A DNA stretch of 64,000 nucleotides, from the NCBI RefSeq assembly GCF_055900595.2, contig NZ_CM148325.1. The stretch is one strand, 5' to 3'. A model generated the notes under the pieces. It searched no databases, had not been told where the DNA came from, and saw only the letters and a program-made list of their open reading frames with translations. Positions 59,042 through 59,285 of this stretch are shown here, in pieces (the first letter of the stretch is position 1; each line of letters begins with the position of its first letter). The translations under genes and the position numbers were made by a program.

Positions 59042-59062
59042 GCACTTCAGCAAAAATAACGC

Positions 59063-59093
59063 ATAAAAAAAGCGGGCCAGCAAACTGACCCGC
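59063..59093 (-). terminator. Rho-independent terminator, minus-strand orientation (candidate pitA terminator)
   Basis: On the minus strand, hairpin GCGGGTCAGTTTGCTGGCCCGC followed by TTTTTTT; lies about 200 nt past the pitA stop. Confidence 0.6.
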
Positions 59094-59119
59094 TCGAGAC
59101 TGATTACAAACGCAAAATT

Positions 59120-59220
59120 GCCTGATGCGCTACGCTTATCAGGCCTACATAATCTCTGCAATCTATTAAATTTGCATGTTTTTGTAGGCTGGATAAGGCG
59201 TTCACGCCGCATCCGGCATG
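59120..59220. repeat. REP elements, two units, between uspB and pitA
   Basis: GCCTGATGCGCTACGCTTATCAGGCCTAC and GTAGGCTGGATAAGGCGTTCACGCCGCATCCGGCAT. Confidence 0.8.
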
Positions 59221-59249
59221 AACAAAGCGCACTATGTCAACAATCTGAA

Positions 59250-59275
59250 GCGGGCCAGCTGACCCGCTCGTTTTG
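59250..59275 (+). terminator. Rho-independent terminator, plus-strand orientation (candidate uspB terminator)
   Basis: GCGGGCCAGCTGACCCGC followed by TCGTTTTGG; a same-orientation copy of the hairpin at 59072-59093. Confidence 0.55.
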
Positions 59276-59285
59276 GTGCGTGCGA

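Follow-up and report, generated by a model that had tools for sequence, protein, structure and literature searches.

In the 64,000-nucleotide stretch of Escherichia coli DNA analysed here (RefSeq assembly GCF_055900595.2, contig NZ_CM148325.1; hereafter the window), the convergent genes uspB (58706-59041 on the plus strand, 111 aa, stop codon at 59039-59041) and pitA (59286-60785 on the minus strand, 499 aa, stop codon at 59286-59288), both taken from the open reading frame list and the RefSeq annotation of identical DNA, are separated by a 244-bp spacer in which two copies of one terminator hairpin flank a bacterial interspersed mosaic element of class 1 (BIME-1) with its two repetitive extragenic palindromic (REP) sequences. 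The explanation that best accounts for the observations as a whole, and which is considered highly probable, is that a BIME-1 split and duplicated a terminator shared by the two genes, that each mRNA now ends at the copy far from its own stop codon, and that integration would have been defined by the structure of the hairpin. The original prediction for this spacer concerned the overlap between the 3′ untranslated regions (UTRs) of uspB and pitA. Such an overlap is only to be expected where a REP element lies between convergent genes, and public tables already contain it without interpretation. More interesting is its cause, a conserved bidirectional terminator split and duplicated by BIME-1, with a footprint that recurs at other BIME-1 sites; the prediction missed this origin from an ancestral terminator whose split is polymorphic in E. 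coli. REP and BIME sequences are among the most abundant non-coding repeats of E. coli, and recent papers call their spread unexplained. A reproducible footprint in natural filled and empty alleles makes this question experimentally concrete.

The duplicated hairpin and its ancestral form

The long spacer is present in 1,939 of 5,426 complete E. coli genomes (~36%), the remaining ~64% carrying a short form. Sampled short-spacer alleles are 174 bp shorter than filled ones, and the extra 174 bp of the filled alleles consists of one 153-nt BIME-1 plus the second hairpin copy. As alignment of the alleles shows, the short form has a ~70-bp spacer with a single hairpin, preceded by A7 and followed by TCGTTTT, and it is copy 1 of the window that equals this single hairpin of empty alleles and outgroups. 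A single A-run/hairpin/T-run also lies between uspB and pitA in ~60 species outside Escherichia, where spacers measure 36-76 bp (Citrobacter, Salmonella, Klebsiella, Raoultella, Kluyvera, Enterobacter, Kosakonia, Phytobacter and other genera). The duplicated form was found in Escherichia only, namely in E. coli, Escherichia sp. MOD1-EC7003 and E. albertii. Because short-form E. coli and the ~60 outgroup species all carry one A-run/hairpin/T-run, the single hairpin is the ancestral state. Comparison of these sequences shows the course of events: the ancestral ~70-bp spacer held one bidirectional intrinsic terminator composed of an A-run, a G+C hairpin and a T-run, into which one BIME-1 integrated at the 3′ foot of the hairpin in an Escherichia ancestor, with duplication of the whole 25-nt hairpin, so that the left copy kept the A-run and the right copy the T-run. 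In the window the layout of a bidirectional terminator is indeed found only in the two copies taken jointly, A7 with copy 1 and TTTT with copy 2.

Copy 1, the left copy of the duplicated target (59071-59096, (A)GCGGGCCAG-CAAA-CTGACCCGCTC(G)), reads GCGGGCCAG-CAAA-CTGACCCGC at 59072-59093 and is extended by TCG to 59096. Copy 2, the right copy (59249-59270, AGCGGGCCAG-CTGACCCGCTCG), has its 4-nt loop deleted, reads GCGGGCCAG-CTGACCCGC at 59250-59267 and is likewise extended by TCG to 59270. Both copies are delimited by the sequence itself, the repeat search, the terminator scan and folding. The A7 run at 59065-59071, a U7 when read from the minus strand, provides the terminator of the pitA direction with its U-tract, and the T-run at 59271-59274 on the plus strand (UCGUUUUGG in context) does so for the uspB direction; each is identified from sequence, the terminator scan and 3′ ends mapped in strain K-12. 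The sequence GCGGGCCAG(CAAA)CTGACCCGCTCG occurs in the window only at 59072-59096 and 59250-59270, and the pattern GCGGGCCAGN{0,4}CTGACCCGC has two matches in the 64 kb, both in the spacer, with none in 100 shuffles. In the repeat search the halves of both copies appear as exact direct repeats (12/12 at a spacing of 178 and 17 nt at a spacing of 174), each copy is scored as an inverted repeat of its own, and the duplication reaches 1-2 nt further left, with AAGCGGG at 59070 and 59248. In the terminator scan copy 1 is found on the minus strand only (11 pairs, tail TTTTTAT) and copy 2 on the plus strand only (6 pairs, loop of 8, tail CGTTTTGG). The claims that the same hairpin occurs twice in the same orientation, that the A-run upstream of copy 1 makes it look like a terminator for the minus strand only, and that the T-run downstream of copy 2 makes it look like one for the plus strand only are thus borne out, the first by sequence and direct-repeat search and the others by the presence of A7 and TTTT and the strands called in the scan.

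The unit between the two copies, GAGACTGATTAC...CAACAATCTGA, covers 153 nt (59096-59248, the boundary being ambiguous by 1 nt at 59096), as defined by its paralogs and its absence from empty alleles. It contains a Y-type REP at 59120-59149 on the plus strand (GCCTGATGCGCTACGCTTATCAGGCCTACA; seen in sequence, inverted repeats and alignment to other BIME-1 copies), an L linker of 34 nt at 59150-59183, and a Z1-type REP in inverted orientation at 59184-59218, listed on the plus strand (GTAGGCTGGATAAGGCGTTCACGCCGCATCCGGCA; seen in sequence, inverted repeats, alignment and a sub-threshold naRNA4-like match). The earlier statement that two REPs fill the spacer is therefore correct, and the Y and inverted Z1 REPs parted by a long L linker agree with the definition of BIME-1 (RIB/RIP; PMC3333891). 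As in other members of the class, the linker is long and conserved and the outer motifs are conserved. The linker matches the Rfam family ES036/CssrF (59141-59181, 37.9 bits vs a gathering score of 37.6), and Rfam matches to naRNA4, L20-leader and rnk, which are sub-threshold and overlap the REPs, were set aside as REP-related noise. According to the literature the L linker of the BIME-1 class carries an IHF site, and likeness to the linkers of other copies predicts one here. Paralogs at entD-fepA and yjbR-uvrA, in genomes that have no unit at uspB-pitA, are ~90% identical over exactly 59094/6-59248, so that the repeated unit GAGACTGAT...AATCTGA (153 nt) ends where the hairpin copies begin. 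The family is dispersed and extragenic, with a median of 39 matching places per E. coli genome and 12 distinct sites recovered here, and like other BIME-1s the uspB-pitA unit is single-copy at its locus, lies at gene 3′ ends and is present in some strains and absent from others. In contrast to the open literature, which describes REP and BIME elements without flanking target repeats, it is bracketed by a duplication of the whole hairpin.

Transcript ends and overlapping 3′ UTRs

The evidence on 3′ ends comes from published maps of K-12 MG1655, converted to window coordinates by alignment. This strain carries the long allele, which is 97.8% identical to that of the window and identical in the stems. 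In Term-seq a strong uspB-strand end maps to 3639154(-), which is window position 59273 inside the T-run after copy 2; it is represented by 130,524 reads in LB at an optical density (OD) of 2.0 and by 25,150 reads in M63, and is absent at OD 0.4. No uspB-strand end is listed by Term-seq at the near hairpin of this strain. On the other strand, the RNAtag-seq/TRS study places the pitA terminus at 3639359-3639362(+), corresponding to window 59064-59067 at the end of the U7 after copy 1, with a ratio of 0.98-1.0, and lists no pitA-strand terminus at the near hairpin in K-12. The supplement of TERMITe has no entry for uspB or pitA. The resulting K-12 3′ UTRs measure ~232 nt for uspB and ~220 nt for pitA, both crossing the two REPs, and overlap over ~208 nt transcribed from both strands (59066-59273). 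Both K-12 mRNAs are thus shown to end mainly at the far hairpin with tails complementary over ~208 nt, and we infer the same for the window strain. The original prediction, that each mRNA runs about 200 nt past its stop codon through two REPs and that the tails are complementary over about 200 nt, agrees with the Term-seq and TRS ends, and the published maps do not show transcripts that stop at the near hairpins with no read-through.

The folding of the two copies on either strand is consistent with this arrangement. In the pitA direction copy 1 forms a perfect stem of 11 bp that includes one G.U pair (-19.6 kcal/mol) and leads into U7, and copy 2 a stem of 9 bp closed by the loop AGCU (-15.8 kcal/mol), with the weak tract UUCAGAUUGU behind it. 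In the uspB direction copy 1 contains a C.A mismatch (-13.9 kcal/mol) and has no U-tract, and copy 2 forms a weak stem of 5 bp around a loop of 8 nt (-12.7 kcal/mol, z -0.66), with UCGUUUUGG next to it. In K-12, as the maps show, polymerase meets a near hairpin without a proper U-tract, reads through it and through the BIME-1, and stops at the far hairpin, which has the U-tract for its own direction; in the window strain it would do likewise. Full-length tails can fold into one long hairpin (-81 kcal/mol and z -5.3 for uspB; -98.7 kcal/mol and z -7.05 for pitA) in which copy 1 pairs with copy 2 and REP with REP, the base rejoining the A-run and the U-run; by this folding, the copies paired around the REP stem would rebuild the A-stem...stem-U geometry. 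An insertion without duplication would part the hairpin from the T-run. Because the duplication leaves a hairpin beside each U-tract, it would have preserved termination in both directions, and a BIME-1 insertion therefore need not destroy a shared terminator. Most Enterobacteriaceae keep the stem asymmetry CGGGCCAG...CTGACCCG, with which the uspB strand has a C.A mismatch where the pitA strand has a G.U pair, so that the pitA direction is consistently the stronger one of the shared terminator.

Several observations count against termination at the far hairpins. The maps come from K-12 and not from the window strain, the uspB strand folds copy 2 into a weak hairpin, and ends at hairpins may come from exonuclease trimming rather than termination. 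Moreover, read-through is incomplete, as SEnd-seq, in entries taken from the copy in the supplement of the preprint by Harris et al. (2026), reports both hairpins as overlapping bidirectional sites (3639152-3639183 and 3639328-3639360, in stationary phase only) and records ends also at the near hairpins (window 59098 and 59244), so that some RNAs end or are trimmed there. These 3′ ends on both strands at both hairpins, together with the proposal in the literature that collision can drive termination at hairpins without a U-tract between convergent genes, would suit an explanation in which most uspB and pitA mRNAs stop at the nearest hairpin and the distal ends are minor read-through, which would leave the overlap without real weight. 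This is judged very unlikely, as Term-seq and the TRS study list distal ends only on each strand, with high read counts and ratios, and the near hairpins have no usable U-tract in the relevant direction. Trimming is a somewhat better alternative, though still an unlikely one: the distal ends would be products of exonucleases stopped by hairpins acting as decay barriers, and polymerase would read further, for example to Rho sites. The poor fold of copy 2 in the uspB direction favours it, as do literature reports of REPs as both partial terminators and blocks to decay. Some read-through past copy 2 is also shown by Term-seq, which has a weak Rho-dependent region on the uspB strand at 3638792, some ~360 nt into antisense pitA; a little transcription thus runs on into antisense pitA. 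On the other side, both distal ends sit in canonical U-tracts immediately after a hairpin, the pitA-direction hairpin with its U7 and TRS ratio is a strong textbook terminator, and the A-run/hairpin/T-run is conserved throughout the family.

In comparison with known systems, the empty allele and the outgroups resemble the bidirectional intrinsic terminators in which one G+C stem-loop with an A-run and a T-run is common to two convergent genes, and the window shares with these the distal 3′ ends in U-tracts seen in the K-12 maps. It differs in that the element is split, with one tract per copy and the copies 178 nt apart, and the SEnd-seq bidirectional sites list an overlap of 32-33 nt each vs the ~208 nt of transcript overlap at uspB-pitA. 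Excludon-like 3′ UTR overlaps are similar in that two convergent mRNAs share a long complementary stretch, and uspB is induced in stationary phase. Unlike in these, the overlap at uspB-pitA is confined to untranslated tails, except for the weak Rho-terminated read-through into antisense pitA. Through the insertion a spacer of 70 bp becomes two long 3′ UTRs that carry REPs and are complementary to each other, and natural allele pairs, of which ~36% are filled and ~64% empty, let the effect on uspB and pitA be measured without engineering. If the proposed reading is true, E. coli lineages would repeatedly switch uspB-pitA, and other gene pairs, from one compact terminator common to both genes to long 3′ UTRs that overlap and contain REPs, and back again.

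A further strong Term-seq 3′ end lies upstream of uspB, at K-12 3639733(-), equivalent to window ~58693, 13 nt before the uspB ATG (58706) in the Shine-Dalgarno region. Reads ending at this position in the uspB 5′ UTR number 109,975 in LB at OD 2.0 and 42,672 in M63. The G+C-rich uspB leader (58625-58712) folds no better than shuffles (z -0.03), and attenuation, processing or a small RNA are possible sources of this end. The promoter scan returned no promoter-like site in 58600-59700.

Other BIME-1 sites and the integration step

The footprint of uspB-pitA is repeated at other BIME-1 sites. At yjbR-uvrA a BIME-1 is present in 88 genomes, and every other genome sampled lacks 174 bp there; in the empty site the convergent stop codons enclose one hairpin, GGCCGCTC[A/T]GAAAGCGGCCT, and the filled site has this 20-nt hairpin on either side of the unit. 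At pbp4b(yfeW)-yfeX, filled in 1,401 genomes, 182 bp are missing from the empty allele, and the duplicated target is a 29-nt terminator made up of A-run, hairpin and T-run. The difference between filled and empty alleles is thus the element plus one copy of the flanking repeat at three loci (uspB-pitA, yjbR-uvrA and pbp4b-yfeX), and the duplicated lengths of 20, 25 and 29 nt equal the length of the target hairpin at each locus. A wider survey, in which metagenome contigs were scanned for the left end of BIME-1 and 1.43 Mb of collected loci were then searched, yielded the 12 distinct sites mentioned above. At six of them (uspB-pitA, yjbR-uvrA, pbp4b-yfeX, fruA-psuK, mgtA-ridA and yacH-lpdA) a whole hairpin is repeated at both ends of the element. 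In a flank-to-flank alignment test four of nine sites score 13.5-17, compared with maxima of 9.0 in 72 mismatched pairs and 11.5 in 1,800 shuffles. In addition, a hairpin adjoins the left (Y-REP) end at 8/11 sites vs 11% of background windows (P = 2.7e-6, with a permissive hairpin definition).

Because the length of the duplication equals that of the hairpin at three loci, integration would be defined by the folded hairpin. A target duplication of fixed length, as set by a transposase, is not what is found, and the BIME-1 integration step, judged from these sequences, does not look like a fixed stagger. Two routes may be envisaged. Nicks could be made at both feet of an extruded hairpin or cruciform and be followed by fill-in, or a copy-choice event (template switch) could leave the template at one foot of the hairpin and re-enter it at the other. 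We tentatively propose, with confidence a little short of even, that BIME-1s insert next to terminator hairpins, at their foot, and copy the folded hairpin in full (20-29 nt), that this would be the first target-site footprint of a REP or BIME element, and that the insertion is reversible. Against the preferred explanation it counts, on the one hand, that 6 of the 12 BIME-1 sites, entD-fepA among them, have no visible repeat, so that duplication is either not obligatory or decays, and that REP insertions beside the uspB-pitA hairpin of Citrobacter and Salmonella occurred without duplication of the hairpin. On the other hand, transposition of the Y1 type by IS200/IS605 is reported to make no flanking repeats, and all sampled empty E. 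coli uspB-pitA alleles keep the hairpin loop (377 bp, none of 373 bp), which counts since simple slippage should sometimes yield a loop-less form.

[quoted passage not shown] Structure-defined duplication may be a new clue to REP and BIME insertion. Bachellier and colleagues reportedly described in 1997 the excision of whole BIME-1 elements. No description of a hairpin-duplication footprint was found in the open REP/BIME literature, a coverage outside which that 1997 paper on excision lies. With MITEs and other small non-autonomous elements that duplicate their target, the uspB-pitA insert shares a short palindromic non-coding unit, filled and empty alleles, direct repeats of the target and an apparently precise loss. 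It differs from them in a duplication of 20-29 nt that matches the hairpin length, rather than a fixed stagger of 2-14 bp, in that no terminal repeats of the DDE type or cognate transposase are identified, and in a footprint seen at about half of the sites. Closer in the choice of target are the elements directed to hairpins of single-stranded DNA (IS200/IS605 and TnpA-REP, IS1397 in REPs, group IIC introns at terminators, and integron attC), given that the left end of BIME-1 adjoins the 3′ foot of a terminator-like hairpin at most sites; the likeness suggests a structure-directed choice of target by BIME-1. To our knowledge none of these systems has been described as duplicating the target hairpin.

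Several side observations concern the individual sites. On a yjbR-uvrA metagenome contig (L199, 2172-2539) hairpin and BIME form a tandem hairpin-BIME-hairpin-BIME-hairpin array with a period of 172 nt and 97% identity; the repeats therefore recombine, and the hairpin-plus-BIME module can amplify in place. In the apparently young insertions at yjbR-uvrA (L087, 380-420) and pbp4b-yfeX (L114, 10855-10885) the right hairpin copy equals the empty-site sequence, and the left copy, on the Y-REP side, carries two substitutions in each case (GGCCGCT to GACCGTT; CTGCCTGGCC to CTGGCTGGTC), which could reflect error-prone copying or later weakening of one repeat. The fruA-psuK locus was discarded as a filled/empty pair, since its alternative allele is strongly diverged, has two hairpin copies and offers no clean empty site. 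This allele (strain S21, L212, 740-960) has two fruA terminator hairpins ~125 nt apart with faint BIME-like similarity between them, and may be a decayed older insertion. In some E. coli an insertion sequence lies inside the mgtA-ridA (H130, H131) and pbp4b-yfeX (H133) spacers, with an annotated transposase and IS1B in one case, which fits the known habit of some insertion sequences to land in or near REPs.

Filled and empty alleles in Escherichia

In a haplotype comparison of eleven alleles (3.4-3.6 kb, 48 informative sites), filled and empty uspB-pitA alleles agree in their flanks on three haplotype backgrounds. One example is the window compared with the empty strain STN0717-11, the two being identical from about -800 to +380 except for the indel and one loop base. 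Copy 2 is loop-less in 30 of 32 filled alleles, the exceptions being E. albertii, with a TTTA loop, and one allele in which the junction of hairpin and T-run differs (CTCATTTT). The single hairpins of Escherichia all have a loop of the copy-1 type (TAAA or AAAA), other genera having TTTC. The unit of E. albertii is most similar, at 92%, to that of E. coli uspB-pitA. Since the hairpin copies are direct repeats around a long palindrome, the insert could be lost precisely by slippage or recombination between them, and precise excision would explain the flank haplotypes common to filled and empty alleles. Read most simply, the element was inserted once, long ago, and has since been excised precisely and more than once between the hairpin copies; the chief objection is that the sampled empty alleles include no loop-less one.

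Two other accounts of the alleles have to be weighed. In one of them the empty E. coli alleles never had the insert, and the filled allele arose once and moved by homologous recombination, with no recurrent precise excision. The single hairpin is the ancestral state of the family, E. coli recombines frequently, and the sampled empty alleles, all with the normal 4-nt loop, include none that is loop-less, all of which this account would explain. Identical flanks on three backgrounds would, on the other hand, require repeated conversion tracts confined to <230 bp; the insert is present in E. albertii too, in the form closest to the E. coli unit; and the copy-1 type loop is found in every Escherichia single hairpin, as opposed to the TTTC of other genera and the TTTA of E. 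albertii copy 2. This account is rated rather unlikely, with spread of either allele by very short recombination tracts being possible. The other account denies the target duplication itself and takes the second hairpin copy for a chance resemblance or a standard part of BIME-1. Its one attraction is that the conserved outer motifs of BIME-1 units pair together, so that palindromic flanks might be expected. Other BIME-1 copies, however, lack the uspB-pitA hairpin and have different flanking hairpins that match their own empty sites, the hairpin pattern is found twice in 64 kb vs 0 expected, and species without a BIME at this place have the hairpin as their conserved uspB-pitA terminator. Such an origin of copy 2, already refuted by the empty and filled alleles, the outgroups and the loci yjbR-uvrA and pbp4b-yfeX, is hardly credible.

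Two variants of the insertion history were also rejected. Copying of the hairpin in flip and flop orientation is suggested only by the inverted loops of E. albertii (TAAA vs TTTA); the inversion does not extend to the mismatched positions of the stem, and at other loci the copies are direct. A longer original duplication, reaching up to GATTACA beside the pitA stop codon, has no support from E. albertii. As to relationships between sites, the rare yjbR-uvrA BIME-1 (L187/L087) is the closest paralog of the uspB-pitA unit, with 94% identity vs the 92% of the E. albertii ortholog, and may derive from the uspB-pitA copy or something closely related to it.

Outside Escherichia, different REP or BIME elements have inserted independently next to the conserved uspB-pitA hairpin in Citrobacter, Salmonella, Kosakonia and others (eight of the collected loci), leaving it in single copy, and REPs seem to have landed at this site again and again. 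In several Raoultella, Enterobacter and unclassified Enterobacteriaceae (seven loci) there is ~0.6 kb or more extra between uspB and pitA; a small gene seems to lie on the opposite strand of the additional segment, and uspB there has a different terminator hairpin of its own. The window itself holds two further BIME-1-like copies, at 12896-12993 on the minus strand (85% identity) and at 47613-47748 on the plus strand (75% identity), the latter with a partly deleted Y REP. Upstream of uspB, the window carries uspA at 57881-58315 on the minus strand, and between uspA and dtpB there is a REP pair (57779-57857) with naRNA4-like Rfam matches below threshold.

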